A DNA stretch of 64,000 bases from NCBI GenBank assembly GCA_044892525.1, contig CM097886.1, forward strand, positions 31,186,001-31,250,000. Reading direction: 5' to 3'. Positions 1,923 through 38,044 of the stretch are shown piece after piece. Both the position numbers and the translations under genes were made by a program. The DNA is from Schmidtea polychroa. Taxonomy: Eukaryota. Each line of letters starts with the position of its first letter. Position 1 is the stretch's first letter. A model generated the notes under the pieces. It made no database searches. It was not told the DNA's origin and saw nothing but the letters and a program-made list of their open reading frames with translations.

Positions 1923-3326
1923 GGGTGGGTCGAATGTTAATAAATTTTGAGTTCAAGAAAGGAAACATGGTTAAAAAGTTGTATTTTGGTATAGAAAAAT
2001 CGAATCAAACCATTTTACTTAGATTTATGGACATTTACTGCTCCCAACTTTTCTCCGAAAATGCAGTTCAACATAAGTGTGAAAACAATGTAATTTGGCT
2101 AGTGTCGGAATGTGTTTTGCGCCTTTGTCCATATTTAGATGTAGCTTTCTTAAGAGCTTATAAGTATATTATTTACTCTCTTGGGCTGAGATAGTATATT
2201 CTGTGTCCTCATCCCGCATTGAAATATATCCTGACAACGTCAGTGATTAGGAAGGGCCAAATTTGAATTATCCTTTTCAAAGAAAAAAATCAACTTTCGA
2301 AATTATTTTTTATTAAAAACATCCAGCCAAAAGTTTAGAAATGTATTAGCGAGGGCATAAAAAGAAGTCACATGAAATCAGCTTTGCTTTGCACCTTGGG
2401 CAATTCCTTCCTTGATTTTTTACACAGTAGTACCATACCATGTCTGGACTTGTGACCAAACACTTTACAACTGGCAGAAGACACATCTTTGATGGCTCTT
2501 TCAACGGCTTGAGAATGACAGGGAAATTGTTCTAATGTAATTTTCTTATTCATCTTCAATTCATGATCCAATATATGAGATAAAAGAGGGGGAGGCGTCA
2601 AATTACATTTTGTCCAGTCAATCATGTCAACATATGATGTAGCAGACGACTGAAGAAAGACAGTATTCTTGTCCATAGTGCGAATCACTTCGGAAGGGAG
2701 AAAATTTTGTCTTGCAGTTATGATTTTTTCTGTTGCAAACTTTCTGATTTCTTCATCATCATCACCAACAGCAGCTAGGAGTATATTTTCTGGATGTGAG
2801 AAGTAATTGTTGTTCTGAATGACAGGAAAGATGATTTCTTGGTCTGATGGATCCAAATCCTGCAGAAGTTGGAGCATATAAAAAATATTTCTTGCACCAT
2901 CTTGGCATGACGAGTGAGTCTTTATATAAAACCATGACGGTCCATAGAAATTGACAATAAATTTCACTATTCGCATGAGAGGTTCAGATGGAGCAGTTTC
3001 GGACATATATAGTCGCAGAATTCTATTAGCTTTCGTTAGCCAGCGACTGTGATTCAAATTTCCTGGTTGTGCCATTTGTAGAAAAGGAACATCCTTGTTG
3101 TTGTGGTACCCTTTCTGGACTGCCAAGCATACTCTGAGGAAATACAATTGATCAGTGTTCAATTCTTTCTTGACATTTTCACTAATATCTACGACCTTTC
3201 CAGGAAGGGACATAAAGGCTACTACGGGCTTGTCTTTTGGATCAAAATCAAGAACGCTTCCTATTTTACCACATGACGTTTTTGGACCTTTTGTTTCTCC
3301 ACCATCGACGACTGAAAAATACTTCC
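1923..3326 (-). mobile_element. Truncated DNA transposon (Sola2-like DDE transposase, C-terminal part, ORF 2368-3213), interrupted at 3326 by an LTR insertion
   Basis: PGNLNHSRWLTKANRILRLY and FPCHSQAVERAIKDVS motifs; frame extends upstream through VDGGETKGPKTSCGKIG to about 3326; candidate terminus GGGTGGGTCG at 1923. The superfamily assignment is tentative. Confidence 0.6.
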
Positions 3327-3648
3327 TGGTGGGTTACAGGTACTGTAAATCTTTTTACCTCCTCATGCTGTTTCCAGCGTAACCCAGGATACAATTCATA
3401 GCTGACCACTTGATACCCGTTGAGCAATCAACGTTGGTACTGTATCAAGGGTTTGGGCACTAGCAAAAAGTGAGCATGCTTAACATACTATAATTGTCTA
3501 GCACCCACTGGGGTTCACGGACTGCCGTTAGAAGGCCTATGTCCGATTTCTTTTCGTCCCCGTTACAACAATTAACATTATAATAAAAGGAAATCAAAAT
3601 GCCCGCTATGGACGCACTGTGAAGATTTATTTTGACAACATGAATCGC

Positions 3649-4113
3649 TTATCGTGTGCTGGTCGGTTCTCTTGGCGTAGCCTCTGATTCAGTAGCATGG
3701 AGAGCTAATTGGGCCTGGCTGGCCTGCCTTATCCTCGCTCGTGCCGCTTTTCCCGGCCGAATCTTCTTCCTTGGGGTTACTATTGTGGGGGCAGGTTCTT
3801 TTGGTCGATGGAGCAACTCATCTAAAGGCCGGATCTTGGCAATGACCTCTCGCTCCAGCTCCTGTTGATGCTCCTTGGCTTCCAGTTCCCTCACCCTTAA
3901 GCGGAGGGCCCGCAACTCAATCTGGTCTTGAGCATTCTGAAGTTGTAGTTGGGTGATCAACTTCATCCTCTTCTTCATCTCCGCTGGTGGGAACCAGGTG
4001 CACTCGAAGTTCCGACAGTGGGCCTTGACTCGGGTCAACTTGGTCCGGTATTCGTCTACCTGTAGTTGTGCCTGTTCCCTATCAGCTCGCATCTCTTCCA
4101 AGAGTTTCTGCAC
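3649..4113 (-). CDS. LTR-encoded coiled-coil protein (ORF-B family), probably a spliced 3' exon
   Basis: DREQAQ...CRNFECTWFPPAEM...QLQLQNAQDQIELRALRL aligns with the 6743-7237 product; TTTGTTCAG acceptor at the ORF start. Confidence 0.7.
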   Translation of the reverse strand: MQKLLEEMRADREQAQLQVDEYRTKLTRVKAHCRNFECTWFPPAEMKKRMKLITQLQLQNAQDQIELRALRLRVRELEAKEHQQELEREVIAKIRPLDELLHRPKEPAPTIVTPRKKIRPGKAARARIRQASQAQLALHATESEATPREPTSTR

Positions 4114-4523
4114 TGAACAAAGGTAAGATCAATGATTTTACACCGACATCGAGGGTCGAACATTATTATGGGCATTAAGGCTAAAAGGAAGTAATCCCCT
4201 CGTCGTAGTCCTTCGCTACGCGCGCCCCAAGACCGAGACCTATTTATCTTACTCAACCTATAGGGTTGTTGTCGCTATAGAAATGTGTAGTCAACAATGA
4301 CGATATTCCACGTCATGGACATTGCAAAAATTCAAACAATCCACCCAATTAAGTTGTCACCGACCATCAAGACACAAACAAACATTAAATAATTGTGATG
4401 AACTGTTAAGGCCTAACATATTTTATTCAATCCTGGATTAAAGAAGTTTAATCCAGTACATAATATCACCTAATACACCCGACACTAAGGTCAGGACAAA
4501 ATGATTAGTTTTGATCCCGAGTT

Positions 4524-5012
4524 TTCCGCCTACTCTCCGAATCCCGCGCTCTCCTTGGTCGAGCGGGTGGACATTCGCGTGCGTCCGCGTGTCCTTGGTC
4601 GTCCTGGTCCTCGTTGAGGCCGTCTTGGGTATTTTAATCCACGCTGAAGAGCCGCGGTCCGTTTCGGGTGACATTGGGCTCGAGCGTAGCCGTCGCAGTC
4701 TTCTACCTCGCCAGCCAGAGTCGCTTTCTCGAGCCGGTGTAATCAGTCTATCGCATCCGTCACTTCGTCAAAAGCGTCGATCAAGGCTAACGACGCGTGG
4801 TTGAGATAAGGCTCCACCTTCGGAATTACGGGGATCACGTTCTGGTAAGTCCAATCATGGATCTTGTACCAGATCCACCTGGACCGTAGCCGGGCGATTT
4901 CTGCGTCCTCTCTCAATCGGACGGCTTCGTCTGCTTCCTCGCCGGTAATTTCTAGGCTCGAATCGACTGATGAGGGGCCGGCCTGCATATTCCTTGACCT
5001 GGTGTTGGGCAT
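4524..5012 (-). pseudogene. LTR-encoded ORF-A homolog with an internal stop at 4743-4745
   Basis: RLRSRWIWYKIHDW matches RLLSRHIWHHIHRW of 7522-7893; the frame continues after the TGA as LHRLEKA...RGPGRPR. Confidence 0.55.
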
Positions 5013-6742
5013 GACTGTAATGTAACCAAAATATTAGAACAAATCCTTACACTTCTGTTACGTTTGATCACTCCAAAACATCCAAATACCTCGTTACAAT
5101 TTATGTACACGCATAACACACAACCAATTCAACAGACCATGATTTCTAGGCAAAGTAAATTAGTTTATAAATTTATTTCTATATTTGGTCCATATACCCA
5201 ATTCAATAAATTGGTTCCAGATTACTAAATTAAATCAAGTTCCTACATTTCAGATTGGTGACTTAGGTTATCAACTTAAGGAGGGTAGGGCAAAATTAAG
5301 GTAGACAATTTCGCATTAAAGTAAATATTTGAAAGAAATTGCATAAATTAAATTAAAATAAATATTTGATATTCGAATAAAATTGCATAAATTGAATTAA
5401 AATGAATATTTGATATGAATCAATTAACTGAAAAATTTGAATTTCGTAAATTAAATTAGAATTATCTATTCGAATGAGTTTGTTTATCTCAATAATTTCC
5501 TTTTTTTAAAAAAAAAATTTCCTTTTCAATCAAAATTATGCTACTAAGACCCACTATGGGAAACGGCATTGTTAACTGTCCGAATTCATTTCGGCTCTTC
5601 GCAATCCTTGATCATAGTGGTTGTAGGTGGCTAAATCGTCTACTGCTAATTAATGGGTAAATCAAATTTAGATCTTGTTAAGTTCGTTTATTTCAGATCT
5701 GGATTTCCAAAACCTCCGTTTTGGGCATGACGTTTCCCTCGGATAATGTATGCGATATAATATTATTTGGCGGTGGCCCAATATATGCCGACATGCTCAA
5801 TTTATGAGGAGTTCAGATGGAAATTTTTCATTTCAAATTTGGAGCTAGGCCGTGGGAATTTAAGAAAAAAAAAGTGCACTTGAGGGAATTAAGAGTGGCT
5901 CTCCTTCCATTCACCCTTCCACATCATCAGTGAGACTTTATAATGGCTAAAATGATTTATTAAATAAATGTTTGATTTCATTAAATGATATTTCGCTTTT
6001 GTTGTATTTAAGTAAATAATTTATTTTGCGTAAAGGAATAGTTATTAAACAATGTTGTTAGTTTTTTCTGTTTTTCATTTTAAGTAATTAGCAGTTATAA
6101 CTATAATACATGCTCCTCATTATTCCTAGTTTATAGTTGTACCGGGTATACATTCCAGCTTAAGCAGTCGCTCTTGGGGAAAATATCCCTTGTCCTTTCT
6201 GGTATGTATGGGAACTACTTCTGGGGTCCCAGGGTTAAATCTGCTGGGGTGTCATGGGTTTTACATGAAGGTTAGAGTTCCTGCTGCCTTAGCTGATGTT
6301 GATTGGCTCGTCTATGAGTATGTATGTCTCGTCTATTTAGATGGTTAGGGTAGACTCGGCGAGGGCTCCCTTAATTTGTAGGGTTGTTTCCATAAATAGG
6401 ATCAGTTTTATTGGCTGCATTTTATATGGTGGGTTACAGGTGGTCAGACATTTCACCCTCTCGTGCTGTTTCCAGCGCAACCCAGAATACAAGCTTGATT
6501 TTGCCAATTGACACCCGATGAGCGATCACCGTTGGTACTGTGCCAACTGGGGGAGTGCTCGCAAAAAGTGAGTGCACTACTGGCACTATAATTGTCAAGC
6601 ACTCCTTGGGTCCACGGACTATCGTTAGAAGATTTGTGTCCGATTTCATTGGTCCCCTACTTCTATAGTTTTCCCAAAAACACCACGCCCATCTCATCAC
6701 TCATCCTCATCATTCAGCATACAAAAATTCAACTTCAACTAT

Positions 6743-7237
6743 CTACGTTTTATTTACATCCATCGGTCCTGCACATGAACTGTCAAGTAGCGCGGACTTT
6801 CTCGCTTCCTCTTCGAATTTTTGTTCGGCGAGCCGTAACCGTTTGAGTCGCTCACGCCCATCTCGGCCCAACCGTTTTCGCTTGGCCTTGGGTTTAGGTG
6901 GGTGCATTTCGGCCAGTTCTATCGTCATGGGCCGGATCGCCGCCGTGACGTGCTCATCAATGTCCCGTTGGTTCAATTTTGTTTCCATGGCCCGCAACTG
7001 AAGCTTTAGGGCCCGTATCTCGGTTTTGTCCTGAGTACTCTGGAGCTGCAGTTGTTCGATCTGCTTCAGGTACTTATGGGCCAACTCCGGGCGGATCCAA
7101 CTCTGTTCCATCTGCCGACAACGTTCCTTGAATTGGCTGACACTAAGTTGCAGCCGCTCTGCTTGCTGCTGCGCCTGCTCCCTGTCTTTCCGGAGTCCCT
7201 CGAACAGTTTGAACACTGAAGTAAAATATACAATCAA
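6743..7237 (-). CDS. LTR-encoded coiled-coil protein (ORF-B family)
   Basis: Homologous to 3649-4113 and more weakly to 12624-13412 (W-x-x-P motif after the coiled coil; basic C-terminus). Confidence 0.7.
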   Translation of the reverse strand: MIVYFTSVFKLFEGLRKDREQAQQQAERLQLSVSQFKERCRQMEQSWIRPELAHKYLKQIEQLQLQSTQDKTEIRALKLQLRAMETKLNQRDIDEHVTAAIRPMTIELAEMHPPKPKAKRKRLGRDGRERLKRLRLAEQKFEEEARKSALLDSSCAGPMDVNKT

Positions 7238-7521
7238 CCAATTTTACCGTAATCCCTTTTTCATAATTGCCGGTCTCTATAAATCGAAACTCGGGTGCCC
7301 CTATGTATGTGTACAAATTTCCGTCGTGTTGATGGTCAGGGGGATAACGTCTCGATTGTTATATAACGCAATTTATTACAGTAACAACACCTAGAACGAC
7401 ACATCGAAACAAGGAAAAACAATATGTTTATTAAACCAGGATTGTGACGAATCACTAGAGTCAAACTAAAATCACTAAAACCATAATAAAATGTAAGTTC
7501 ATTCCCAAGATCACTGAGGTC

Positions 7522-7893
7522 TCAGTTTCGGGGAGCCTTCTTGCAGGGTCGGCCCCGCCTCCTCGCCGGTGTCGGTTCCACGTCCACTTCTTCTAACGGC
7601 TGACCGGTTTCAACGGCCCGGAGCTGAGCCTCGATCAGGCGGAGTTCGCGTTGGGCCAGAGCGATGGCGTTCATGGTGCGATCTCTGGCCTCGACGAGCC
7701 AATTATTGTCCGGCTCGGTCTTTACCCATACTGGCGCGTTCGCCTCGGGGCCTGCTCGAATCACCCGGTTTGAGCAGTCTAGATCTCGACCCTGACTCCA
7801 CCGATGGATGTGGTGCCAGATGTGCCTGGATAGGAGGCGCTCGTCCGTTGCTTCGCATTGTTCCACTTCCCTCTGATCCTTCAAATTCGACAT
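7522..7893 (-). CDS. LTR-encoded ORF-A protein with a C-terminal AT-hook-like RRRGRPCKK
   Basis: Intact 123-aa ORF, GC-rich against an AT-rich background, TTGTAG acceptor just before the ATG, homolog in LTR X. Confidence 0.7.
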   Translation of the reverse strand: MSNLKDQREVEQCEATDERLLSRHIWHHIHRWSQGRDLDCSNRVIRAGPEANAPVWVKTEPDNNWLVEARDRTMNAIALAQRELRLIEAQLRAVETGQPLEEVDVEPTPARRRGRPCKKAPRN

Positions 7894-8044
7894 TCTACAA
7901 TTTTCATTATAGGTTACTACTAATTTTATTTAAATTATCACGCTGACTAGCAATGTAAAGTATTATCGTTTTATTATTAATTTTCCGTTTCTGTCTAATT
8001 AAAATGGTTCATTTATGATATTAATTTTCCTATCTATTGAAAAT

Positions 8045-8222
8045 TTATTCATTCATGATACAAATTTTCTCACTTATTTAAAATTGTTCGTTTATGATAT
8101 TCATTTTCCTACTCATTTAAAATTATTCATTTATTATACAAATTTTCCCACTTATTTAAAACTGTTCATTTATGATATTCATTTTCCTACTCATTTAAAA
8201 TTATTCATTTATTATATTACTT
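8045..8222. repeat. 39-bp tandem repeat, about 4.5 copies, inside LTR Y
   Basis: Alternating units ttattcattcatgatacaaattttctcacttatttaaaa and ttgttcgtttatgatattcattttcctactcatttaaaa. Confidence 0.85.
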
Positions 8223-9562
8223 TTCTTTTTCATTTTGTTTAAATTTATCTATTTAGGAATCCCTTTTTAAATCGAAGAGCGCTCCGACCAAAAAAAATTA
8301 TGTGTCTGTGGCCAATGAGGACTCGCTATCGTAAAAATTTCAGGTAATTGCACCGATTCTTCATTATTTACTTTCCGTGTTTTGGTTTCAGCCGATGAGC
8401 GCCCCAGAAGATCCATTCGGCCACTCTGTCACAGAAGCCATGCACCTCTCAACTGGGTGAATATGAACTGGACTTTCTGTGTCCCTCCATCGATTATGAC
8501 TGGGCAGATTGAACCTCTGCGAAGAGCTATTGGGGGTCAGTTGCCCCGGTGAATTTATTATGAATAAATGAGGTTTAAATTTGATTTTGTTCTTTAACTC
8601 TTCGTTTTATAATTGTACAAATTTTACCTTTTCGTTTTCGTGTTGCAATCCGGAACTGGGAGATGATCAAGTATAATTATTTTGGAGAAATTTTCCTAAA
8701 TTTGGTACTTAACGAATATATATACCTAATATGTTTATCAAATAGTACTAGCCGAGTTGTGCATTTATAACTGATATATAGGTAATATGGTTATAAGGAA
8801 ATTCTCAACTTTATAAGCAAGGTAACTTGATTAGTCCATTGACTAATAATCCTAGGTAATTTATGAACCTCGCAAGCGGGGTGTGTCTAATTGCTATAGT
8901 TATTGATCGACTTGTAGGCAATGTATATATAATTAATGGATTCATTAATGGGTATTGAGGGTTTATAAATTTTATAAGTGATATATTTATTCGTAGTCAT
9001 GGGGGATGTATGAGTTGTACCAAGTATATATAATGACCATATGGATTCGGGGCTGATCTAGGATTTGGTAAATAATGTATAAGCATAGTTAATTTATTTA
9101 TCATTAGACGTAAATGATTTGTCGATTGTATAAGTGATAAATACATAAATAATAGGCCTAATAACAATTATCGATTTATGAGTAGTATACCTAAGTAATA
9201 TCATATATGAGGTATTCTATGGGTTAGCTTGGGATGTATAAATGATATAAATAGGGTTTCTAAGTACTATCAAGTGGTCGAATATAGGCCCTGAACACCG
9301 GGGGTGATTTATAACATTATAATGTATAAGTAAGATTATCTGTATAATGACGAGTTAGTCTTAATCGTGGATGAACTAGACGATTTAAAAATAATGTGGA
9401 AATGATTGCTATATTTATAAATGAGTAGTAGGGTTTATAACTAATAGATGAAAATGCATTCAAATAGCTCCCGAGAGTTTACGACTTCATAAGTAGTACA
9501 TATACGAGTGGTAGTGATACGAAATATACATCATAGGTATTAAATTCATCAGTAATATATAG

Positions 9563-9990
9563 GAGTAGTATTGACAGAAATTATGATCTGCAAGTTTATG
9601 AGTAGTATATTCTAGTAGTATTAATATGAAGTATAAATTATAATTTGTACTCTTATAAGTAACATATTTGAGTAGTATTGACAAAAAAAAATAAATTATG
9701 ATTTGTAATTTTATAAGTAGTATATATTAGTAATATATCAATATGAAGTATAAATTATAATTTGCACTCTTATAAGTAATATATTCGAGTAGTATTGATC
9801 GAAAAATTAAATTATGACTTGTAATTTTATAAGTAGTAGATATTAGTAATATATCAATATGAAGTATAAATTATAATTTGCACTCTTATAAGTAATATAT
9901 TCGAGCAGTATTGATCAAAAAAAAATTAAATTATGATTGGTAATTCTATAAGTAGTATACATTAGGAATATAACATAATATTTTGTAAGT
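9563..9990. repeat. 107-117 bp tandem repeat, about 4 copies, inside LTR Y
   Basis: gagtagtattga... unit starts at 9563, 9670, 9787 and 9903. Confidence 0.85.
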
Positions 9991-12216
9991 AATATATGCA
10001 GTAACGCATTTATTAATGGTTAATGAGTCTCACGAGCAAGGCATGTAGGATGATTGTACCGATTAGTGAACATCATAATTAAAAAGTATATACCTAATAA
10101 TATACTTAGTAGCAATCGGGGAAGGTCTATAAGTTTTATAAATAGGTTATATAATTTCAATATATCCATTAGTTGAGGTAGATAAGCAGTATATTTAATA
10201 CTAAATTTTGGACATCGATGTAGGATCGTAATTTAAAAAAAAAATTCATATGTTTATTAACTTATAATTTCCTAAAAAGACCGATTAGGGTAAGTTTATA
10301 GTTGATCCATACAATTGTAAGGTTTTTTATTATATAGTGCATAAGTGTATAATTTATATAATGTATATATATAATTGTAGGGTTTATTTGTTATATAATT
10401 CATAAGTATATAACTGGTAATTTATACAAGCCATAATTCATATATAATCTACAATTTAGTATTTACAATTTAAAATTTATATTTAATTTATATCTCATGT
10501 GATTTATAAGTTTACATCCAATTATAGGTTTATACTCTATTATCAGCTTTTAGAAAGTGCAATCTTATGAAAAATTAATCCAGCATAATTTTATAGTTTA
10601 TATCAAATTATAGAGTAAGATTTATACTTTTATACATAGATTGGTAGTCGGGAATACTAGTTAAAAAAAAGTTTTTTAATTTCCTAATCAATACTCTTAT
10701 AATCGGTGGTAATTCATAAATTTAACTTGAAAGAGGTTTAGCCAACTACATATTTGGTGTATTGTAGTTAATTTAAGTCCGGAGCTCTACTCCATTTTTC
10801 ATCCTTAGGGTAGTGTATCACTGTGGAATTTTAATGTATAGATTATATGTACATTATGCGTGTGAAAAGTCAATTTACAGCAAATATTGCCTGCTTTCGG
10901 GGCCTCACTGTGCTCCCTACGACAAGCCCTTATTGTGAATGTAAGCGGTAATATACTACCGTGTATTATAATATCGATAACGAGTTCCGCGAACTCCATC
11001 GCCCGGAGGTGATTCATCGACGAACCCAGCGGCGTATACCACTGAGTCGGTACGACCTCCGACGACCCCACCATTATAATATTGAGGTGCATGCCAGGCA
11101 GTGGCCTGCTTACGTCAAGGCTGCGTGCACAATGACGTTGTAAATATTGATGCCCATTTGGTATGTGAGACGGACCAAAATCGATGATAAATTCGATCGA
11201 TGTTGGCCCCTCTAAAAAAATTTAAAAGGGGGTTCATTAATTAGAATCCTTTGGAGATTAATGCATAATAAATATTTAATATATATACCAAATACATGAT
11301 AAAAATAAACAACTGCATCAAATAAAAGAACAATTCTTACTTAAATATTTCTGATGAAGTTAAAATAATAACAAGAAAAAAATTTTTTTTGGCATAAAGA
11401 TTAACTTGTGACTAAAATGCGTCGGTATATATACCTATTTTGTACACGTGTATGTATTGATGCATTAAAACAAACTCGACTTCCTTTTATTCCAGAATTT
11501 TCTATTTTACGATTTTGCTATTTTTAATGGCAATTTTTGTGCCATAATTTTTGTTTTTATTTTTATCTTTTTATTTTTTACTTATTTTTCATTAATTTTA
11601 CGTCCATGATGGATTTGGAACGGTTCCAGAACATTCTATTTTACTTTTAATTTAATTTTTATTTTAACTGATATTTTTATGAATTTCTTTTTGAGATTTT
11701 TGGTTTTAATACTAATTTATTTATTTTCCTTAACTTTTGTTGTTCTAGATGACTTTTGTGTTGGCCATCGTCATTTTTATAGAATGTTCTGGGTTTTTCT
11801 GGAATGTTTTACTGTTTTTATCGTCTTTTAAGTTATTCGAGTTTGCTTTTTGTAACTTTGTTTTTATTTGGTTATTTTTGAGTTAGATTTTGCATAACTT
11901 CTTGCTCTTGTATAATTTTATTTACTTTCGGTGTTTATATTTTTCTGTTGTTTTCTCTTTTAATCAATATTGTTTATTTGGTGTATTTTTGATATTTAAT
12001 TATACTTTTTGCTTTTTCCATGTTATGTACCTACGCATTCTAGTCACAATTATAGTTGGGATCTAGAAGTCAGTTCTAGCCCAACATATTGTTGGGGTTA
12101 CACCTCGGCTGACCATTCTACCATGTTGGCGGGTCTAAGGGTTGATTGTCCATCTCGAATAAAAGGTGCCACCGATTTGTCAACCTGGAGTGAAACCCCA
12201 CATAACTTTCTTCCAA

Positions 12217-12364
12217 CATAGTGCCCGTGAATCACTTCACGTTGGTACTGCACTATGCAGGCGAGACGCCAGCAAGCAGGTGAGCTTCTGCCTTAAAACT
12301 ACTCCTTGCTGAGGCCTCGACTTCCCATTCACGACTGCCGATAGAAGGGCTTACGTCCATTTCC
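12217..12364 (-). ncRNA. Conserved three-domain structured RNA element near the LTR end (copies at 3409-3550, 6507-6647 and 38179-38326)
   Basis: Stems covary among three divergent LTRs while the loops UUCUAAC/UUCUAUC, RCUCAC and AGUACCAA are conserved; G-U pairs favour the minus strand. Confidence 0.7.
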
Positions 12365-12623
12365 TTACACAACCACCTATCAGGATTCGCTGAATGCAAA
12401 TTGGGAAATTCTCACTAGATCTTGCGGGTTCTCTACTCAACCCACTTAATTAAAGTCTAATTATTCATGAACGAAAACGTGTAAGACAACAAAATTTATT
12501 AATTTCAACGTTATGACACAAGGATTCAGCTGTACACTTTACTAATGTTGGTCGAAAGAAGAGAAAACATCATAATCAACATAGATCGGATCCTTGTTCC
12601 TCATCCTGACCGCCACTGGGGTT

Positions 12624-13412
12624 TTATTGTTTCTCCCATTCAGTGTCGGCGAATAATTCATCGAGGTTGAAAAACTCGGAAGCGTTCTCTTCCCACCTTA
12701 CGCCAGCGGCTGATATGATTCGCGCTGAGGGTCCCGTTGTTAGGTCGATGGACACGTGAGAGTTGCCACCGTTGGTTGAGTCCTCTATTGATGGGATGTT
12801 TGGCTTTGTAGTGGCGCGCTCGCGCTGTCTCTTCTTGCGCTCTGCACGAGAGAGTTGTTTGCGCTTGGGTTTGCTTGAAGAGGCCACTTGCAGAAGGGTG
12901 ACTGAGACGGATGGACTAGCAGTGGGGGGCTTACTGGTACCCGTGATGACAACATCTGGTCGCTTGGGGGACAATTCGGTTTCGACGCAGTCTCGGCACG
13001 GTCTCTTGAACGGTGGAGAGGGATTCGAGGAAAGGTTGTGATGAGGCGGAAAGATGTCATCGGCCTCTCGGATGGGAACCTGCACTATTTTTCGGGTTGT
13101 AGCCGCCTGCACGTAAACCTTATGCAGTGCCTCGGATTGTTCTCTGATTAGACTTCTTTGGGCACGGCTCTCAGATATTAGCGCGTCCCGGCAATGCTCG
13201 CTACGATCGAGCTTCTTTTGGATCTCTTTCATCCGAGCGGGACTAAACCATGTCCCTTCCAGCTCGTCTATCTTCCTCTTGTAACGTCCAATCTGAGTTT
13301 GTAGGTCCTTTATCACCGTATTTTTATCCGCGCACGAGAAGCACGGCCGTAATGCTGATTTAGTGGTTGGTAGCATGCTTGCTATAAATAATACTAATGA
13401 AATGTAGAACAT
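12624..13412 (-). CDS. LTR-encoded 262-aa protein (ORF-B family: coiled coil, S/P-rich, basic NLS-like stretch)
   Basis: IDELEGTWFSPARMKE matches CRNFECTWFPPAEMKK; identical copy at 38586-39374. Confidence 0.7.
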   Translation of the reverse strand: MFYISLVLFIASMLPTTKSALRPCFSCADKNTVIKDLQTQIGRYKRKIDELEGTWFSPARMKEIQKKLDRSEHCRDALISESRAQRSLIREQSEALHKVYVQAATTRKIVQVPIREADDIFPPHHNLSSNPSPPFKRPCRDCVETELSPKRPDVVITGTSKPPTASPSVSVTLLQVASSSKPKRKQLSRAERKKRQRERATTKPNIPSIEDSTNGGNSHVSIDLTTGPSARIISAAGVRWEENASEFFNLDELFADTEWEKQ

Positions 13413-16182
13413 ACGATTTTAGAATAAATTAGATACGACCTACGGCCATTCGTGGATGCTTGACCGACAAAAAAAAAAAGAAAACTTATTCTACAATCCG
13501 GTTTTACCACGGATCTTATTTGTTGAAACAGTTTTATTTAATCAAATGCCATCGGTTTGACGCATGCTATTAACTTTGACTCTCTATTGATCTAACTGTA
13601 TACATGAGGGGCGTAACAATTAATAGGGTGTAAATATAATATTGGTGAAATAATATAATAACGCTTTAGTGGAGGGACATTATAGTATGCGACTAAACCT
13701 TACTATAAATTAGCTATTTTAATTTATTAAAAACAAATTACTATCGCTATTCTCAACATATTTTTGATTCGAAATTTGTTATTGGAAGTGTACTTTTAAT
13801 TCGGTAGTGAATGTGATTATCCATGTTGTCTACCATTTGTCTGAAAATATGTGATGAGTTTACATCAGCCATTACTTGAACACCCTAATGGGATATCTCA
13901 TTGGTCATAGCACATGTCCAAATTTACGGATACTACTGTCGACTAGTTGATTACATTATCGAACTATTGTGAATGTCACGTGTCGCGACTATCATGTATG
14001 CTAGTCTGATATTCTGTGCTCTCACCACATGGATTCGTGTATGGCTACTATCTTATCTCATTTACTTGGTGTATGCCATTTTCACAGTGATTTTATCGAT
14101 CCTGCTGTCATATGATTTTCTCTGCACGGTGATTTATTTGAATTATGATTTATGCTACCGTCAGTTCTCATCGCGGAATTTTACCCTTATCAACTTGTGT
14201 GAATGATCACCATCGTTTGGAAATTTATTGGATCTTTTCAGTGATCGTCGAGGGAATAATTCTACCAAATGCTGAAGCATATTACTACTCGCGTCATTCT
14301 ACTCGGATTTTCCTATTCAGATGTAATGCCGTCTCGATGAAAACTGTCCTTAGCCATTCGAAAATTTCTCTCAGGTTCAATAATTTGGATATATACCGTG
14401 ATGACCTGGCTCTTATTGTAGAAATAAATGTTATTAATTAAATTTGGTGATATTTTACCTGTTTATAATTTTTGAAATAACTAAGTCTATAAGAACTTTC
14501 TGATTATAATATTAGAGAGGTTTTCGTAGAATCTCGCATTTTATAGTTTCGAGTTAGTTAAAGTTTTTAGAATACTTTCGTAACCTGACATGCAATCAGG
14601 ACAGGCTAGACGTCATCGGGTCTATGATAACGGAATTTCATACGAAATCAGTTCTACTGAGGCCGGCAAATAGACGTTGTCGCAATTAATTTGATGAAAC
14701 CATGTTTCCAGATGAAGCGTACTATGAGATGTTGTTATTTTTGACGAAGTTCACTAAATCGTGGTCTGGATCTCTTTTTTCAATAGGGGTAAGATTTACG
14801 AAAACGACTTGACGAAAGAAAAAGGAATGCGACGCCCTCAGTCACTGTGCAAATCCTTGAAAATCCCTTCATTCGTACGACTATCTTTGTGAAATCATTG
14901 TCTACCGGTTATTTTTTATCCATACCCCATTATGATAATTTAGTCGCATCTTCAGCGATAGGACCCGTGAAGAAGCCTTCACATTTCGGCCCAATCTAGC
15001 TGCGTGATTGAAATACTCCATGTCCACCGGCTGAGCTCCCGAAGGCACCTCATACCATGACATGGAGTATCTCAACTCCACGTTACTCGTTAAATGAAAA
15101 TTCATAAAATCTTTAATTCAAATAAAATACGGACATCTGGATAAAAATATTTTATTAATTCTGAAATACTTAAATAATACAAATTCCATCAATACGTTAA
15201 AGTTATTAAAATGGAGAATCAAATGAAGAGAGTTAACCAAAATGTTTAATCGTTAATATTTACCATTACTATTAGCTTTACAAATACTTAAATAAATCTA
15301 TAAACAAATGAAATACCCCTTACTATTGTTTAGGCTGAGTCAAAATTCAATGTTGTTCGTTCCAAATAGTTTGAATGGTGGTCCGTTGGATGTCGATTAT
15401 TGTGATGGATGGTATTTCGGTCTCTGAACTGGTTTTGAATAGTCGTGGAGTTTTCTGAATGACGGTTGCTTGGCTAGTAGTGTCGATCCTATGAAATGCT
15501 CGGGGTTAACAGTCAAAACAGTAAACATTTTTCTTACCTATGAAATGCTCGGGGTTAACAGTAAATTTAATGTTTTTGGTAGTTGTATATATATCAAATT
15601 CTTATTTGTGCGGACCAATCAGAGTTGAGTACCGCTTATTTCTATTAATTTAATATAATTTTCTTGTTTTTAGGTTGTTTTTTCCTTATTTTCTTTATTT
15701 TTAATATGTTTTTCTATTTATTTCCTTAATTTCCTTATTATTTCTTGAATTCCTCTTTATTTATTTGTCAACTTGTTCTATTTTAATCTTTTCTTAATTT
15801 TATTTTTTGTTTTAATTCTTATGTCTTAATTATTATTTTCCTTATATCTTATTCTATTTTATTTCTGATTTTATTTATTTTATTTTTATTTTTCGTAATG
15901 TTCTACTTCCCTACTTTCTTATTTTTCAACGATTAAATTTTCGACTCAGCCCAACAAATCACTCGGGGACCCATCAAAATTGCGTCCCGCAATTGCATAA
16001 TTAACTTAATTCATTCATTCAAAAAAAAATATAACACGAACACGGAAAATTATACAACAATGATAAAAATTTTATTGTAAGATCAAGGTCAAAGCAAGAC
16101 CAAGCAAGTATCACTTAAGGTGATAGTTTGTACATACAATAAAAGTTTCCACATATAATAACACAAATGTTTGAATTAGAGT

Positions 16183-19007: not shown

Positions 19008-20396
19008 TTACTCCGTTCTACCCTTCTCCTCTTTCCTCACGGTCATCTTGATATATATGGTATCATTTCTCGCCATATCTTCTACTCTTTGTTGTGAGAT
19101 GAACGTAGGTGCTCCTGTTGCTGATCCTTCTTCGTTGAGGGGCCTCTGGTAAGCTATTTGATTCCCCGTTGTTTTGAAGCTTTGCTCATGTATACTTTGG
19201 TTGTTCATCAGAGTAATATCGATTTTTGCCTGGAACGGCCATTCTAATATTTCGTCGTATTCTCCTTTACATAACAGAAAGAAAATCGAAAAGTGCGTAT
19301 CCAATCCGGTTCCGTCCCCGTTGGGATATACCTTCATTTTCATTTTGTACCCATTTTTCCAAGAATGGAATGTAGGACTTGTTATTCTTGTCTCTTCTCC
19401 GGTTTTTGCTTTTCGTATTCTTTCTTTTACTCCCGTTATTTTCCATATGTAGGGTGCTGTTGGGGTTATCTCATTTAGATTTATTTCCCGTATTTTCTGA
19501 TGTAGCTCCTTGGCCTGATTATTACTGATTTCTGTTCGGTTTATTTGCATCTTTATGTTTGCTCGGGCTTCTTCGAACGCTTCCCTTTCTTCTAGTAGTT
19601 CTTTGACTAACACTTTCAACGATGTTATCTCTATCTCCATTTGTTTTACTTTCTCTTCGCTTTCTTGTAGCGCAGTCGACCACATTTCTGCGTGAGTTGA
19701 AGCATTTTCTACTAAATGATGTGGTAACTCACCTCGGTGTAGTAGTTTCTGACAACCCCATCTACCTAGTACACATGTCATTCTTTTCTTTGCGCATTCC
19801 CTTAGATGCTGTGCCACCTTCATTATTTCCCCTTGGTTACATCCGTTTGGGCATTCCCCACTGAACTCTGCACATACTCTCTCCTCTTGGACATTGTGAT
19901 GTTTGAGGGTGAGATTTATCCACGTATCTATTTCTCCACAGTGTTCACATCTTTCCAATCTCTCTTCACACTGCCTTTGATGCTCTTTTTCTTCGCTTGC
20001 TCGAATGGTTTTATGGCACCTTTCACACTGGCCAATTCTGTACATACATTCTCCCATATGTTGTACTACCTTCCATATTACTCCTTTCCATTCGCATGGG
20101 GCATTTTTGCATCCCAGGTTGGTGTTTAACATGTCTTTCACTGCGGCTTTATCCTCGTTAGTGTCTTCTAAACTCGATATTAGTGTCTCTTTACACACCG
20201 GGCACCTCTGTGGTCTATTCTTTATTGCTTCACTGATACATTCTTTACATACTCTGCATCCACATTGCGTTTGGTGAGGTTCCTTTAACAGCTTTTCACA
20301 TATTCCGCACGTAACATGTTTGTGTATTCTGATCGTTGTAGATTTTCGGACTTGCTCGACAATCTCTCTGAACTCTTCTCTTTGTCGTTTATCCAT
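19008..20396 (-). CDS. TRAF-family protein (RING, TRAF zinc fingers, coiled coil, MATH/TRAF-C), intronless, inside the retroelement
   Basis: CGICEKLLKEPHQTQCGCRVCKECI..CPVC RING; YIWKITGV..SPTF..GYKMKMKVYPNGDGTGLDTHFSIFFLLCKGEYDEILEWPF MATH. Confidence 0.93.
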   Translation of the reverse strand: MDKRQREEFREIVEQVRKSTTIRIHKHVTCGICEKLLKEPHQTQCGCRVCKECISEAIKNRPQRCPVCKETLISSLEDTNEDKAAVKDMLNTNLGCKNAPCEWKGVIWKVVQHMGECMYRIGQCERCHKTIRASEEKEHQRQCEERLERCEHCGEIDTWINLTLKHHNVQEERVCAEFSGECPNGCNQGEIMKVAQHLRECAKKRMTCVLGRWGCQKLLHRGELPHHLVENASTHAEMWSTALQESEEKVKQMEIEITSLKVLVKELLEEREAFEEARANIKMQINRTEISNNQAKELHQKIREINLNEITPTAPYIWKITGVKERIRKAKTGEETRITSPTFHSWKNGYKMKMKVYPNGDGTGLDTHFSIFFLLCKGEYDEILEWPFQAKIDITLMNNQSIHEQSFKTTGNQIAYQRPLNEEGSATGAPTFISQQRVEDMARNDTIYIKMTVRKEEKGRTE

Positions 20397-20481
20397 TCTA
20401 TAATTATATGTACAAATAGTTCTTATCGATACAGGTTCGATATTTTATTTACAATTATTTACATTTTAAGCTAGGTTTGGT

Positions 20482-21001: not shown

Positions 21002-24000
21002 CTATATACGTGAGTTTGGAGGGCGCTGAGCGTTCCAGGCCTCCACCCACTGTTCTTGTTTGATATCACTTGGTCGTTTCACTCGATGTTGGAAATTTCT
21101 GATTCGAGTCATCTCTAGTTCTCCGCGGTGTCGTTTATCCTTAATTATTTTTATTGTTCCCCCCGTTATGATTAGGAATGCCCCTGTTATTATTATCCCA
21201 CTGATCCACATCATCTGCTTCACGCTTATACTCTCTGGTTTTTCCTGGTTTGTTAATGTTGATATTGCTTCTGCACTTTTCTCGTTCCCTCTTTTGCCGT
21301 TTCCTTTCATCCTTTCCCGTATTCTTGCTATTTCCTCGTTCATACCCTCCTTTGCCATCTTTTGTATTTTTTCCATCTCTTCTTCCGAAACATAGTTGTC
21401 CTGAGCTTCCTCGCCGGTTTTCTTGTGCTTTCCTCCTTCGTCCTTTTCGTCGCGGTTTTTCCTTTTCTTTCCTCTTTTCCCCGGGTATCGTCGGCATTCT
21501 CTTTTTGATTCGTTTCTCCAGATACAAACCGTATATTCCTTCGGGGGCTGCTGCTGCGTCACATATTGATGGCATCTCTCACCCGGTCCTAATCTTGAAA
21601 TACAGACTTTGTGCTCTTTTCTTGGTTGGAGCTGCGTTATTACTACTTCGCCACCTTTTCCTAGGTGTACCTCTTTTCCTTTAACGTTCGTTATTCTTTT
21701 CCCGTCTCGATTTCGGTATGCTTCTTGTATTCTTACTTCTGTTATTGGTTCTGTGTCCTCATTTATTAGTACTAGTTTCTGATACGCTCTAGACATGCAT
21801 CTTCCTAGTATGCACCGTTCCTTTAAGTCCCATTCTTCCTTTAAATCCCACTGCTGCTCTTGTGCTTGCTTTTTCTTTTCTTGTTTTAGTTCGTCCTCTT
21901 TGCTATCTTGATTCTCCGCTTCTTTGGTTTCTTTTATCGTTCTCGTCCCTCCATGAGCTGTTACTAACTCTATCATGGTAAGCATAATTATCATTAATAT
22001 CATATTTGTCTCTATTTCTTTGTTAGTGAAAGGTAGGCATACCCTCTGTTTTCCATTATTCGATTTTTCCTCCTCTTTGGTCTTAGTTCCCGGGCTGTTT
22101 CCCTCTCTTTTCGTATCCGAATCCTTGTTTTCCGGTTTACCCCCCTCCGGTTCTCTTTTCTCTTTATCCTCCTTTCGGCCTTTTCCGTTATTGTCATCGT
22201 GTTTATCTCCCCCGCTGTCGTTTAAAATGTCGTCCTCGACATTTATATCGTTCAATAATCTGCGATATGTTGTTAGCACTCTGTTTCTTGCTAATTTTGC
22301 TTCGAATTCAAACTCCTTTCTGCCCGTTGCAGCGTGTCTCTTTCTATTCCATTCTTTGACTAATTCTCTTAATTGAATGCGACGATGTTTCCCAATTCTT
22401 TGTTGCTCGTTCTGATTTTGCGTGAATTTTAGGTCTTCTCTATTTAATACTATTAAAATAATTTTAGGCGTCCCCCCCTTAGTTAGGGTATTCTTTACCA
22501 TCGCATTTTCTCCGTTTTCGTAGAATTCGTTTACATTTATCGCATATTTATTATTTTGTGGTACTCTCCAGGTTAATAATAATTTCATTGCTTCTCGATT
22601 TTTCCGTACCGTATTCCATTGAAACTGAGATGTGTTTTTGCACATATTTTCAACTTCTTCTTTTGTCGCATTTTTGCAAATAAATCTGATCATTTCTAAG
22701 TTTGGCTGTATGGTTGCCCAGTCCAAGGTGGAATTTCCTTCATTGGACCTTTCGTCTAGTTTCGATCCTGATTGATGTAGGATGTGGAGTGTTTTTGGGT
22801 GTATTTTCGTTATAGCTGCATACATCATGGCGGTTTCACCTTGTTCATTTTTCGTGTTGGTTTCCTCGCCCATCTCCCCAAGGATTCTCATGATCGTTAT
22901 TGCTCTATTCTCTTTTGCAGCTAGTATTGCTTGTTGTAGAGGTGTTCTGGAATCCTTCGTTACCATCGTAAATGCTCGAGGCAAGAAGGTTTTGATTTTC
23001 CCGATATCTAAATCCGTGGTTTGATCTCTTGCGTATGTGTGTACGGTTTTTATTATTTTGGACAATATTATTTCGTCTGGCAGCTCTAGCATTTCCTCAA
23101 AGAACACTTCTTTTGCTTTGCGTATTATTGCCTCTTGATCTATACTCATTGATTTGGTTTCGATGACGTTGTTTGTGACCGTTTGGTTCGTTGTTGACTT
23201 TGATTCCCTGGATTTCTCATACCTTATTTTCGTTTTCTTTCCGTTTGGATTATTGATTCGTTCCTCTGCTGTAAGTATTTGGATAATATTCAGGTAATTC
23301 TCGCGGATGTTATTCATTGTGTCCATCATATATAACACACTTACCGTTTCCCAATATTTATTTCGTACTTGGTTAGTAAATTGGAATAGGGATTTTTCGA
23401 ATGTGTCGATTCGCTTTTTTGCTAACTGTTCGTCTTTATGATTTGTGAATTTTATCCCTCGTTCTAGTAATTGATTCGGGATTTCGAATAACTGATGTCC
23501 TTTCATAGCTTCTCTCATCAGCGTGTTCTCTCCTCTCGTGAACGCTTCGTTTACGTTGATCATATAATCGTTTCGAATTGGATTTCTCCATGTGATTAAT
23601 ATTCCGGTAATTGTCGTCAGTTTTTCTTTGATCGCTGTTAACAATCCATCATACATGTTTCCGACTTCCCGATTGTCCTCATATGATAGTAGTTCCATCA
23701 ATGACGTGAACGCCTCGGTACTTCTCCCTTCGATAGCATGGTGTAGAGCGTTTTTCCGCTCGTGGTCTTGTGTAGTTATTTTCGATCCGGTATCGAGTAA
23801 CGCGGTTATAATGTCTTTTGTTTTACCTCTGTTTGCGGCTATCATTAATGGTGTGTAACCTTGGTTGTTTGTTTGTTCTGTTGATCGCTTGCAGTCGTGA
23901 AATGCTTCTATTGTTTCTAGTATTTGCTCGTTGTTACCTACTTTCATGAGTTTGTGTAATGGTGTGTCTCCGTAATGATCTGTTATTGTAAATAATATTG

Positions 24001-26521: not shown

Positions 26522-29500
26522 CGTGAAAGCTGTTTTCTCTTTGTCCTCATCTTTGACTTTAATCTGCCAGTATCCACTTTTAGATCTAAAGAAGTAAAAT
26601 ATGCTGCCCCTTGCAACATCAATAACATCTCATTGATGTCCGGCAATGGATAGGTATCTCTCTTGGTCACTGCGTTTAACTTCCGATAATCGATACAGAA
26701 TCGTTGGGTGCCATCTTTCTTTTTTACCATGACCACTGGGAATTGCCAAGGTGAGCAACTTGGTTCGATTACTTTTGCGTCTAGCATCTTTTGTACTTCT
26801 GTTTCGGCTATTTCTTTCTGCATTTCTGCTAGCTTGTATGGTCTCAATGCAATTGGGGTTTCGTCTATGAGTGGTATTGCATGTAAGGTAACATCACATG
26901 TACCCAAGTCTAAATCTGAGATGGCGAATATATCTTTATATTCTACCAACAATCGGTGCAATTTTTTCTTTTCGTCATTCGTCAACAACATACTATCTAT
27001 TGTCCATAATTCATCATCTTTGATCATCTCGTTGGTCACTTTCGGTAATTCTATGTCCATCATTGGGGTCAATCTTCCCAATTTTTCGTTCTCATAAATG
27101 ATTTTGTCTTCCTCTTCGAAATTCGTGATGTTGAGCGGTATCACTCCTTCTTGGTTTATTGTGATTATTTCTCTTGCGAGTGGTAATTCTCGTCGCTTTT
27201 CGAATGACTTGCTTGGTTCAAAGATAACTTCTCCTTCCATACCCGTATCCACTTTTATCTGACAAATCATCTGCGATTTTGCTGGTACTATTATTTTTTC
27301 TGGACATCTGATGACTGCATTCATTTTGCATATTCTACCGGTTTTGTCTTTTAAACACATGGTTGTTAAGTCAATTACGACTTCCTTTAACAATTCTGGC
27401 ATCAAATCCGTTCCGATTATGCATGGTACGCTAAGTTTTGGTATTACTGCCAAATACGTTTCAATTTCGTTGTCCTGGTATCTCAATGTAGTCCACCATC
27501 TTCCGACCACGTCCACTGTTTCTTTACTACATGCTATAATGTGAATTGTTGTTGATTCGATATCCTTCCAGTGTTTACTGGGGATTTGATTAATCGCTAT
27601 CGCTGATACATTAGCTCCGGTGTCTATCATAGCATTGGTTTCTTTACCATTGATTTGAATCATAACTGTTACTGCTGGACCTCCAGGTAAACTCATCGCT
27701 GCTATTGTTCTTACGTCATCTGCTTGATCTACACTTTTGGTACGTCGTGTTGGCATATAATGCATACCGGGTTGACTCGGTAATTGCGGATACATATTTT
27801 GTGTCATGGTCAAAGCTGTTTGTGGTCCCACGATATCCGGTGGTATATAGCTTCCATTGGCGATCCAGGTGTTTGTCTTTTCCTTTTCCCAATATGGTGC
27901 CGTTTCCATTGGTTTTTCGTTTGGGTTTCTGTTTGGATAAAGACATTTATCGTTCCCGTTATCATCGTCGTCACTATCGCTGTTAGATGATTGGCTTCTA
28001 AATCGGTCCAAGAATTTTGGCTTATTCTTTTTCAATTGTCGTCTTGTTGCTTCATCGTACATTACTTTCCGGAATCGTCTGCCTACTTCCTCGTCGGTTC
28101 CTTTAATCTTTGTTAATATTTTAATCAATCGCTTTATCCGATGAATGTCTTTTGAGTGACCATGTAATACCATGGTTTTAGCTAAAAATGGTAAGAAGCC
28201 TACTATCATTTTCCAATTTACTTTCTTTTCTCGCTTGTATATATCAAAACAAGCTAACATTTGTGTTAGTATTACTCTGACTATCTGAATTATGAGTATG
28301 ATCCCTAATATCCCGGCCATCATTTGTCCAAAAACTAAGAATCTTCCCCACATTGCTTTCATCATGTTTGACGTAGCTTGTTGAAAATGGTCTGGCGATA
28401 ATAGCAGCTCGTAATTCGGGCCTGATTGATAGTTTGTGCCCCCAGTTATTGTTACCATATTAGACAAAATGGATTCTCGTCTGGCTGGAAAGAGTACGTT
28501 AAGCCGTGCTGTTTCTAGATCTTCTGGGGAATACATACCACCGTTTGACACGTCTATAGGTTTGAAATCTAGCTCTGTGGCGAGTTCTATTAATCCAAAT
28601 TTCTTGGGTTCCTCGGATATGGTTTTTCCCGGTAACATCATCCATTTCCCATCGGGTCTTTCATACAAAGGTCCGTATGCATTAGAACAGTTAAAGAGAT
28701 TTGGGTAGAAACCCACTGGATTCATAATTCTAGTGACTGGTTGGACGAATCGATTTTGTCCTTTATAACGAATTTCTAATTCATTTGCACATCTCTTTTC
28801 GGGTAGTATGGATTTTTCTGGCATTCGTGCATACGTCTTGGTACACTGGTATGTGTACATCACTTCTCCTACCATTCTACCAAAGTGTCCATCTGGTAAT
28901 GGGAGTGATGGCATCGTGTTATCTGGGTGCGTTATCGCAATAGCTAGCTTTGTTTTCAATATTTCTTTATTCAATGAACAATCGTTTTGTATCAGATCGT
29001 AATATACTTTTTGCAAGGTCGTTTGTCCGCGATGAAATAGAAAATCCATTTTATTATTTGCATATAAGTATAGTTTTACGTCCTCCGTTGCTATCTTTCC
29101 CACTGCTCTATCGATTATTTGTCTCGACATATAGATACCTGCGTAATTGGTTTTATATACTATACTGTCACATTTGGTGGTTTCTTTCTCTTTGATAAAT
29201 CTCATACCTAGATCTGGATCGTCTGTGATTAATGCTGTTGGTGTCTTCTGCGTTGAAAGTCTCTTTTCTCTGGGAGATGGTGGCATTGGTTTTCCATTTC
29301 GCATTCTCACTCTGTCGTTTCCATCCTCGTCGTTCTCGTTCTCATATATTTCTCCTTTTACTTCATTGAACAAAGCACTTTTTAACAGTTGGAGTCGGCA
29401 TTTTTGGGTATTAGCTTCATAGATTATAGTTGATACTCCTGTCCTGCATACGTTTTCTGTAGCTCTACACGTTGGGTTGGTCTTCATTTGGTAATTATTT

Positions 29501-34854: not shown

Positions 34855-36164
34855 GATTGGTGTTCTAGGTTCGTCTGTTTCTTTTAAATTGTCTAACGAT
34901 GTGACTAAACTTTGGGCTGATAATTCCTCGGTTGACGTTGCTAAACTATTAGTGATATCGGACAGACTTTCTCTACTTCGAGATCGACTAGGGGTATATC
35001 CGAGATTTTCTTGGTCAAATATGGGTACTTGATTGGTTCTTCTGGATCCTTGTGATATTCCTCTTTGATGTTTAATGGATCGTCCTCTTTTGAGTTGTTG
35101 TAATTCGTCTCCTGAAAATAATACGTCTCCTGGCTTACTAGAAGATCTAAGATTGGGTTTATCCGTGATTCCTTTCTTACGCTTCTTGGTAATTAGCGGC
35201 TATTGAATTGGACGCGTTCGGTTCTGATTGTGTTTCCTTCGATAAATATTCTGTATGAATCTGCTACTGAGATCCTGAGGAGATTTACTAATCCTTGGCA
35301 GATGGCTGCTAATACTTCTTCCGTTCTGGAGTCTTCCGGTTGCTGTGTCTCTCGGTGCGGGTTCTGAATGGATTTATCCTTGGTTGATTGTCGATTTCTT
35401 CGAATTCCTTTTGTGCAGGTTCTGGATTGTCTTGGTTGGCTGGATTGGCTTGATATCTAAAATGAAAAAATGATCTCGTGTTGCATTTGCTTACACGACT
35501 TCATCATTCTTTCTACAACATTCAAAAACAGACACCTTTTAGGTTTCTGTTTGTGCTTCCCCTATCTTTTGTGAAATCCTTTCTGCGGGTTATAATATCC
35601 CATCAGCCCGTATTTTCCGTCGATTTTAAATTATCTATATGGGGTAGTAACAATTATCTATAAAGTCGTAATAATTATCTATTCGTTATCAATTATAGTA
35701 AAAATAGGTCGTTGTCGGTCTCTGCTTATTACCCCCCTTTCATTTTCCTAATCCTTTTGCGCTGTTGTCGCTATTTTACTTTTCATATTCACTATTATTA
35801 CGCTCGGTTCTACTCTGGAACCAATAAAATGCATTTTCCCGGTTTAATCAAAAAAAAAATATTCCGTAGAGTTTCTCTACTTCACTGGGATCCCTTTAAT
35901 TAGTTAGTTACTTTCCTCTTTACTCATTATCATCATTTCATCTATTCTTTATTTTCTATTATCTCTTTACTTCGTTTCCTTCTTCCCTTTCCTTTTTCCT
36001 TATAATCTTATTTTCTTTTCCACGAGCTCGTTTATTTCCTCTCTAAACTCGAATTTTCAAAATTACATTCAATTTGTTCTAGCTAGCTTTAATATTCCAT
36101 ATCACTAGTAATTTAAATATTATCTCGTTGTAGCTTAACTGCTATCTCTCGCTTTTCTAGGCCT

Positions 36165-38026: not shown

Positions 38027-38044
38027 ATCCCGGCTGAGCCCCCA
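38027..38044 (-). promoter_or_regulatory. Primer-binding site, tRNA-Pro type
   Basis: TGGGGGCTCAGCCGGGAT versus the MLV tRNA-Pro PBS TGGGGGCTCGTCCGGGAT (16/18), 7 nt inside the 5' LTR end. Confidence 0.85.

Follow-up and report, generated by a model that had tools for sequence, protein, structure and literature searches.

What does an RNA structure do that recurs at the ends of giant LTRs while its stem sequences diverge? Four such sites were proposed on the minus strand of a 64,000-nucleotide stretch of the Schmidtea polychroa genome (the window) in a preliminary description, which placed them in three divergent giant LTRs and offered packaging, initiation of reverse transcription and self-cleavage among the possible roles. 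We found all four sites, and the stems quoted for them, in the minus-strand sequence. We then mapped the elements that carry them, measured the conservation of the fold and compared its position with that of the primer-binding site (PBS).

Nested giant Gypsy-type elements

Comparison of the window with itself gave an identical repeat pair (12090-15957 and 38052-41919), and the terminal letters together with a 4-base target duplication fixed the LTR length at 3867 bp. The sites at 12217-12364 and 38179-38326 belong to the two identical LTR copies of this one element, family c3. Taken together, the sites mark the 3' ends of LTRs from three nested families, c3, c2 and c1, with lengths of 3.9, 5.7 and ~5.9 kb (Table 1), in keeping with the three divergent LTRs first described. 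The c1 LTR has its 3' end at 3327 in 30 of 30 retrieved copies and its full length of ~5.9 kb in copy L224. The 5' boundary of the c2 LTR is deduced from terminal letters and a target duplication, and c2 copies in the genome are paired at a spacing of ~30.8 kb. Across 239 nt, c1 and c2 are 75% identical.

Table 1 Features of the nested elements and of the RNA structure, in window coordinates.
Feature	Position	Strand	Basis or remarks
c1 LTR, 3' part	3327-6426	minus	continues at 41920-43854, past the nested c2 LTR and c3 element
Linker and domain IV (c1)	3327-3394	minus	reaches LTR 3' end at 3327
Domains I-III (c1)	3409-3544	minus	I 3519-3544, II 3454-3507, III 3409-3449, CCAA 3434-3437
c2 solo LTR, ~5.66 kb	6427-12086	minus	structure 6495-6647, bulge 6532-6539
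Full Burro-type giant Gypsy element, family c3 (29.8 kb)	12090-41918	minus	self-comparison, ORFs, Pfam domains
c3 3' LTR	12090-15956	minus	carries structure at 12093-12357, without spacer or PBS
c3 RING-MATH ORF	19008-20444	minus	
c3 RT, RNase H, integrase, ankyrin	21002-26629	minus	
c3 gag, CCHC knuckles, fusion-glycoprotein-like env, protease	26476-35199	minus	
c3 RING ORF	37224-37730	minus	
c3 5' LTR, 3867 bp	38052-41918	minus	TG...CA, identical to 3' LTR
PBS (c3)	38027-38044	minus	18-nt complement of host tRNA-Pro 3' end including CCA tail
Spacer, 7 nt (c3)	38045-38051	minus	LTR end to PBS
Domain IV (c3)	38055-38161	minus	long-range stem, closed at LTR 3' end; length and sequence of interior vary
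Linker (c3)	38162-38171	minus	pairs with LTR end and spacer
Domain III (c3)	38175-38223	minus	lower stem, 8-nt bulge 38204-38211 opposite one G, 6-bp upper stem
CCAA core of bulge (c3)	38204-38207	minus	
Domain II (c3)	38224-38281	minus	long covarying stem, conserved 1x3 internal loop (U / CAC), capping hairpin
Domain I (c3, 5' LTR)	38295-38319	minus	short stem, near-invariant UUCUA loop plus 1-2 variable bases; predicted T-loop-like
Last AATAAA before structure	12495-12500 (c3), 3626-3631 (c1), 6749-6754 (c2)	minus	

Burro/GYPSM1 elements are giant gypsy-like LTR retrotransposons of planarians, ~30 kb long with multi-kb LTRs and thousands of copies, whose gag and protease flank an env-like fusion domain in the same frame, and which also carry MATH/TRAF, RING and ankyrin domains (PMC6431247, in the part available). 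At 29.8 kb and with identical 3867-bp LTRs, the c3 element lies within the described size range (25-30+ kb, multi-kb LTRs). Its env is, by Pfam, a Monjiviricetes-type fusion glycoprotein in frame between gag and protease, and MATH, RING and ankyrin domains are present; c3 is the only family for which this is shown. The c3 element matches Burro/GYPSM1 by size and domains as described in that part of the account. The available part of PMC6431247 treats the proteins, without LTR RNA structure, spacer or primer, and the accessible parts of PMC8532177 and PMC13465017 cover Burro1 expression and function only.

Several further features of the locus were recorded. The nesting is threefold (3327-43854), with the c3 element at the start of the c2 solo LTR, inside the c1 LTR, and LTR ends inserted into other LTR ends were also seen at L014, L024 and L002. 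The c3 polyprotein uses two overlapping frames with their junction within RT (26476-26629, minus). Immediately before the c3 3' LTR (15957-15990, minus) there is no clear purine-rich tract; plus-strand priming may be unusual. By eye, CCAAT-like and TATA-like motifs and a donor-like site lie ~350-420 nt into the c3 LTR (15540-15620, minus), and if the start is there, R would span ~3 kb. Each LTR contains an ORF with a Lys/Arg-rich stretch recognised by eye and without a Pfam match (3649-4128, 6743-7243 and 12624-13418, minus), which ends near AATAAA, 100-270 nt upstream of the structure; the c1 and c2 ORFs start at acceptor-like sites. The 3' end of the c1 LTR falls within a 321-aa open frame (2368-3333, minus) without a Pfam match, and 3-kb contigs of runs X7 and X8 span 3200-3328 and then diverge, as expected for an empty site in a host gene. 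Other Gypsy pieces occupy 44841-57168 (minus), one of which encodes the fusion-glycoprotein domain of c3 next to protease and RT, and no copy of the structure was found near them. Tandem repeats lie at 59637-61042, 36165-36645 and 42095-42920 (15-nt, 74-nt and short unit, the last inside the c1 LTR).

Conservation of the fold

Domains I-III were present as first described; missed at that stage was a fourth, long-range stem that runs to the LTR end and whose pairing continues into the spacer preceding the PBS. All three LTRs have an AATAAA 85-140 nt upstream of the structure, confirming the downstream location given earlier, and these motifs suggest that a U5-like position fits. The c1 and c2 copies fold with z values of -3.7 and -3.35 on the minus strand, compared to -1.7 and -1.5 on the plus strand; for c3, z is -1.45 for a 150-nt cut and -2.28 for 311 nt. 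The minimum-energy fold of the c3 5' leader includes domains II, III and IV and the helix between linker and spacer. Missing from the minimum-energy folds are domain I in c3 and the inner stem of domain I in c2. Domain I is thus the weakest part of the structure, and domains II and III are strong. Domain IV loops out a variable 60-140 nt and, on its own, is in most copies no more stable than shuffled sequence.

Loop I consists of UUCUA plus one or two variable bases, a layout that we take to be that of a T-loop; T-loops mostly carry a purine where loop I has U. Pseudoknots were also considered. One between loop I and UAG shows no covariation and is broken by a U-to-C change in 6 of 43 copies, and two others (loop I with the linker, CACCU with GGG) likewise lack covariation. 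Many families (e.g. L247, L251, L266, L250) also have a conserved GGACC word 15-45 nt upstream of domain I, within a hairpin in one clade; the tRNA variable loop is complementary to this word, a match that is not significant against shuffled tRNAs.

The decamer CAGTACCAAC occurs 5966 times in the genome, compared to 443 times for a control, and inspection by eye found domains II-III at 51 of 60 sampled decamer sites, with 2 truncated and 7 unrelated. Copies were gathered via the motif, DNA similarity and the primer site, keeping one natural copy per 90% cluster, and 43 of them were aligned without use of structure (mean column identity 62%); degenerate or truncated copies, including L045, L052, L101, L135, L098, L113, L115 and L148, are excluded from this alignment. 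Across the 43 copies, 87.4% of cells were paired, compared to 68.7% in shuffled and 35-41% in slid controls, for 38 pairs selected on the same alignment on which they were counted and in copies that are related. Both sides had changed in 32 of the 38 pairs, and 0 of 500 shuffles reached any of five measures. Column-independent simulations along the tree reached at most 80% paired and a maximum summed G of 422, compared to the observed 1207; depending on rate, 29-30 of 38 pairs had p<0.05 and 9-22 lay above all 500 simulations. A stricter all-against-all G-test on an earlier 37 rows left 1 pair at E<0.05, with stem pairs filling most of the top ranks, and RNAalifold on the first alignment recovered domain III alone.

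These results bear on whether the pattern could come from inverted repeats of a high-copy repeat without selection on pairing. The choice of pairs on the counted alignment, the relatedness of the copies and the use of several bulge-picked samples would all favour such an artefact, but the pairing far exceeds that of the shuffled, slid and tree-simulated controls, and the same fold appears in samples picked by the PBS and by other domains. Chance is largely refuted and, in our judgement, extremely improbable. The fold is real and under selection, and the earlier statement that pairing is kept despite changes in the stems stands.

We also looked for the fold elsewhere. Within the window, model R1 found no further copy beyond the known four (fifth match E 0.65). 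A search of the window against Rfam at E<=1 returned no match at the sites and one unrelated weak match at 50054; the same search with 16 loci at E<=10 returned 5 weak unrelated matches, with no ribozyme and no T-box among them. In collections poor in animal DNA, a pattern scan of metagenomes gave 2 matches without the stems (model R1 E 0.09 and 0.73, loop I only), a scan of viral contigs gave 4 near-identical matches without the fold and no R1 match, and a pol query of the viral contigs found no relative. Titles and the starts of abstracts in the literature held no description of the structure. Contigs of runs that we took as RNA by guess (X5, X6, X7) cover the structure, in a form from which strand, ends and level are not readable. 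The fold is a leader RNA of a known element class with an expected kind of function, apparently uncatalogued.

Pairing between the LTR end and the primer-binding site

In all families seen with internal sequence, the PBS is an 18-nt complement of this genome's tRNA-Pro, separated from the LTR end by a spacer of 7-8 nt, and every PBS seen beside the fold is for tRNA-Pro. A primer-site pattern, blind to the bulge, gave 1077 genome matches compared to 0 in a control, and we examined 90 of the first 100 listed. Among these matches listed, 87 of the 90 tRNA-Pro PBS sites had the structure upstream, 2 were truncated LTR ends and 1 was non-LTR; the base before the PBS was U in 89/89 LTR-derived sites among the matches listed.

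The linker downstream of domain III pairs across the LTR end into the spacer, forming 6-10 bp in each of the 29 distinct 5' LTR ends. There are two main spacer types with matching linkers, which differ at three paired positions, and a third spacer type provides a C-G / U-G / U-A series. In 11 of 12 copies the linker favours the spacer of its own type. The covariation between linker and spacer is based on two or three lineages, and in one type-A subfamily (L080, L260, L303 and kin) the helix is broken mid-way. Measured from the bulge, the linker motif lies at 44-53 nt (85 copies) and the PBS at ~110-175 nt. Since the spacer lies outside the LTR, this helix is possible solely in a transcript that extends from the 5' LTR into the PBS. 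We regard it as the best evidence that the fold would act as RNA at the priming site.

We therefore favour, as probable on our model, a role in the genomic RNA of the element, where the predicted fold at the 3' end of the LTR would place the tRNA-Pro primer and initiate reverse transcription. The linker-spacer helix, forming only in such RNA, would bring the start of the PBS close to the base of domain III, with a spacing that hardly varies. The CCAA of the bulge would first pair with the spacer U and the UGG of the PBS, mimicking the CCA end of the tRNA and keeping the priming site closed or ready, until the CCA of the tRNA displaces it from the PBS start. The freed CCAA could then possibly pair with UUGG in the anticodon loop of tRNA-Pro(UGG), and loop I and the internal loop of domain II may supply tertiary or Gag/RT contacts.

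Structures at this position are familiar from retroviruses. Rous sarcoma virus has U5-IR and U5-leader structures at the U5-PBS. In HIV-1, the PBS stem and the U5-leader stem make up the U5-PBS initiation structure (PMC1865047, available part). As far as that source describes it, the likeness is a conserved predicted fold directly 5' of a tRNA PBS with pairing across the LTR end. The Burro-type fold differs in its size of ~250-300 nt, its four domains, its fixed CCAA bulge and the absence of Rfam similarity, and in a 7-8 nt spacer that serves as a helix strand.

A packaging or dimerisation signal would occupy the same RNA. Here domains I-III would bind Gag or nucleocapsid, the link to the PBS would be mere neighbourhood, and the signal would be confined to transcripts that are initiated in the 5' LTR and continue past its poly(A) signal. 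Retroviral packaging signals are located in the 5' leader, the UUCUA loop, the UAG/CUCAC internal loop and the bulge are unpaired and fixed, as would suit protein binding, and the element encodes CCHC knuckles. Packaging leaves unexplained, however, the helix that ends at the PBS, the constant spacing and the bulge letters that complement UUGG, and a conserved self-complementary loop is lacking, since the bulge has lost its GUAC palindrome in 18 of 52 copies among the matches listed. We consider packaging unlikely as the main role; it is compatible with a role in priming, and both options of the preliminary description, initiation and packaging, agree with a structure that precedes nearly every listed PBS and pairs into its spacer.

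An element of RNA processing, acting in read-through of the 5' LTR poly(A) signal, in export or in translation, seems to us quite improbable. It would account for the AATAAA before the structure in all three LTRs, and the Lys/Arg-rich ORFs that end upstream of it, which have no Pfam match, would suit a variant in which the fold is perhaps the response element of a small basic LTR-encoded protein, as in Rex/RxRE. Priming is favoured over this role by the spacer-dependent helix, by the association with 87/90 PBS sites among the matches listed and by a fold that ends at the PBS.

The remaining possibilities are a new self-cleaving ribozyme and an epsilon-like template for protein-priming or self-priming. 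Many unpaired bases are fixed, domain I presumably resembles the P3-L3 part of HDV-type ribozymes, and domain III has what we take to be the bulged-hairpin shape of epsilon. Hepadnaviral epsilon consists of a lower stem, a bulge, a short upper stem and a loop, a layout that domain III shares. However, Rfam gave no ribozyme match (sites at E<=1; 16 loci, any ribozyme, at E<=10), a hammerhead core was found in 0 of 43 copies, and no covarying pseudoknot appeared among the top pairs. An HDV-like reading was rejected, as no covarying P2-like partner for the nested double pseudoknot was found. Cleavage here would also separate U5 from the template needed for rebuilding the LTR. For epsilon, the shape of domain III is the part of the suggestion that held; it is contradicted by the tRNA PBS, perfect in its match, and by a Gypsy-type RT, with no terminal-protein domain among the Pfam matches. 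Since the 18-nt PBS is identical to the host tRNA complement in all families, ordinary tRNA priming is implied. We judge both possibilities very unlikely, and the ribozyme option of the preliminary description finds no footing in these searches. The fold belongs to none of the T-box, epsilon and known ribozyme families.

The CCAA core and the choice of primer

Because the early samples had been picked by the bulge, two samples were drawn without it. The first used a pattern of domain I, CTCAC and GGG, which has 2313 genome matches compared to 0 in a control; it comprised 52 places among the matches listed, on C1 below 17.52 Mb, 34 of them shared with the decamer list (by eye) and the other 18 retrieved. 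CCAA and the first A were kept in 52/52 of these domain I-II sites listed, and positions 2-4 differed in 18. The second was the PBS-picked sample, in which 86 copies had CCAAC in the bulge and 1 decayed copy had CCAA, giving CCAA in 87/87 among the matches listed. Here positions 2-4 had changed in 19 of 87 among the matches listed, with at least 7 different variants in copies that are related. The bulge, described at first as an invariant AGUACCAA, is thus fixed only at A1 and CCAA.

We also searched for copies in which the first C had changed, and obtained 152 overlapping matches compared to 28 for a control. These are scattered over known families, and some apparently carry the change in both LTRs of one element, a pattern that an error in first-strand DNA or tolerance of the change would each give. 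Among 100 listed of the 152 matches there was no family with another codon; codon positions 2-3 were checked in the domain-picked and PBS-picked samples.

CCAA is complementary both to UUGG at the junction of spacer and PBS and to U33-G36 in the anticodon loop of tRNA-Pro(UGG). This pairing comprises 4 bp only and cannot covary, as both sides are invariant; with 11 near-invariant 4-mers in the structure, the chance that one of them matches the anticodon register is ~4%. The anticodon loop of tRNA-Pro and the start of the PBS both read UUGG, so that priming could proceed as a reciprocal strand swap.

The tRNA-Pro(CGG) and tRNA-Pro(UGG) of this genome have identical 3' 18 nt and different D arms. 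The PBS alone therefore cannot choose between the two isoacceptors. The tRNA-Pro genes themselves lie in long tandem arrays (L151-L165, L218-L223) of 475-bp and 442-bp units, with 2313 and 1431 pattern matches.

T-box riboswitches read the anticodon by a codon and a 3' purine in a side bulge (PMC7583486, available part). The Burro-type bulge offers, by its letters, CCA (Pro) and A in 87/87 and 52/52 copies among the matches listed, next to a tRNA-Pro primer; the UGGN at the PBS start pairs with the NCCA end of the tRNA, and a T-loop-like loop is present. Set against the same part of that account, there is no S-turn, as AGUA varies and faces a single G; one T-loop-like loop (UUCUA) stands in place of the double T-loop consensus (AGAGA / UGxRA); and there is neither an antiterminator nor an Rfam T-box match, in a host that is a eukaryotic retroelement. 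We put forward tentatively, as a possibility that the letters suggest, that the fold may be a T-box-like tRNA selector in a eukaryotic retroelement, whose bulge CCA and A, freed from the PBS start by the reciprocal strand swap, would read the UGG anticodon and pick the isoacceptor.

Other contacts with the primer were considered as well. Overall, the 41 leaders complement tRNA-Pro to no greater extent than they do shuffled tRNAs (p 0.16-0.81 for Watson-Crick pairs, 0.37-0.79 with G-U). The linker after domain I that complements the T arm has a run of at least 7 pairs in 24 of 41 families and is absent from the c3-like clade, at a level not above shuffled tRNAs. Trans pairing with the T arm, D arm or variable loop is not claimed on this ground: it is visible in many families, yet not above shuffled tRNAs.

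Contacts between primer tRNA and leader RNA that extend beyond the PBS are known for HIV-1, Ty1 and Ty3 (parts available of PMC11251516 and PMC5371799). On the favoured reading, the predicted fold would act in the manner of the U5-PBS structures and extended contacts of these three (PMC1865047, PMC11251516, PMC5371799). Compared with the A-rich loop and primer activation signal of HIV-1 and the bipartite PBS of Ty1 and Ty3, as these parts present them, the likeness is a leader CCAA that complements the anticodon loop, with a possible second one, in most Burro-type clades, in a GAACCC-type linker that complements the T arm. The candidate anticodon reader differs in being a 4-nt core in the side bulge of a long covarying stem, and the T-arm match differs from the primer activation signal in being clade-limited and not significant against shuffles.

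HTLV-1 uses one tRNA-Pro(UGG) isodecoder by a route that the accessible part of PMC11251516 leaves unexplained. On that account, even for HTLV-1 it is an open question how a retroelement selects one of several tRNAs whose PBS-matching ends are the same. If only the general reading is true, that is, a fold that places the primer and starts reverse transcription, the structure would be an RNA family of an expected kind that has not been catalogued, and would serve well to mark Burro LTR ends (~6000 sites). In either case, dozens of diverged families provide natural covariation of unusual depth for the leader of a retroelement, with a fixed core of 4 nt.
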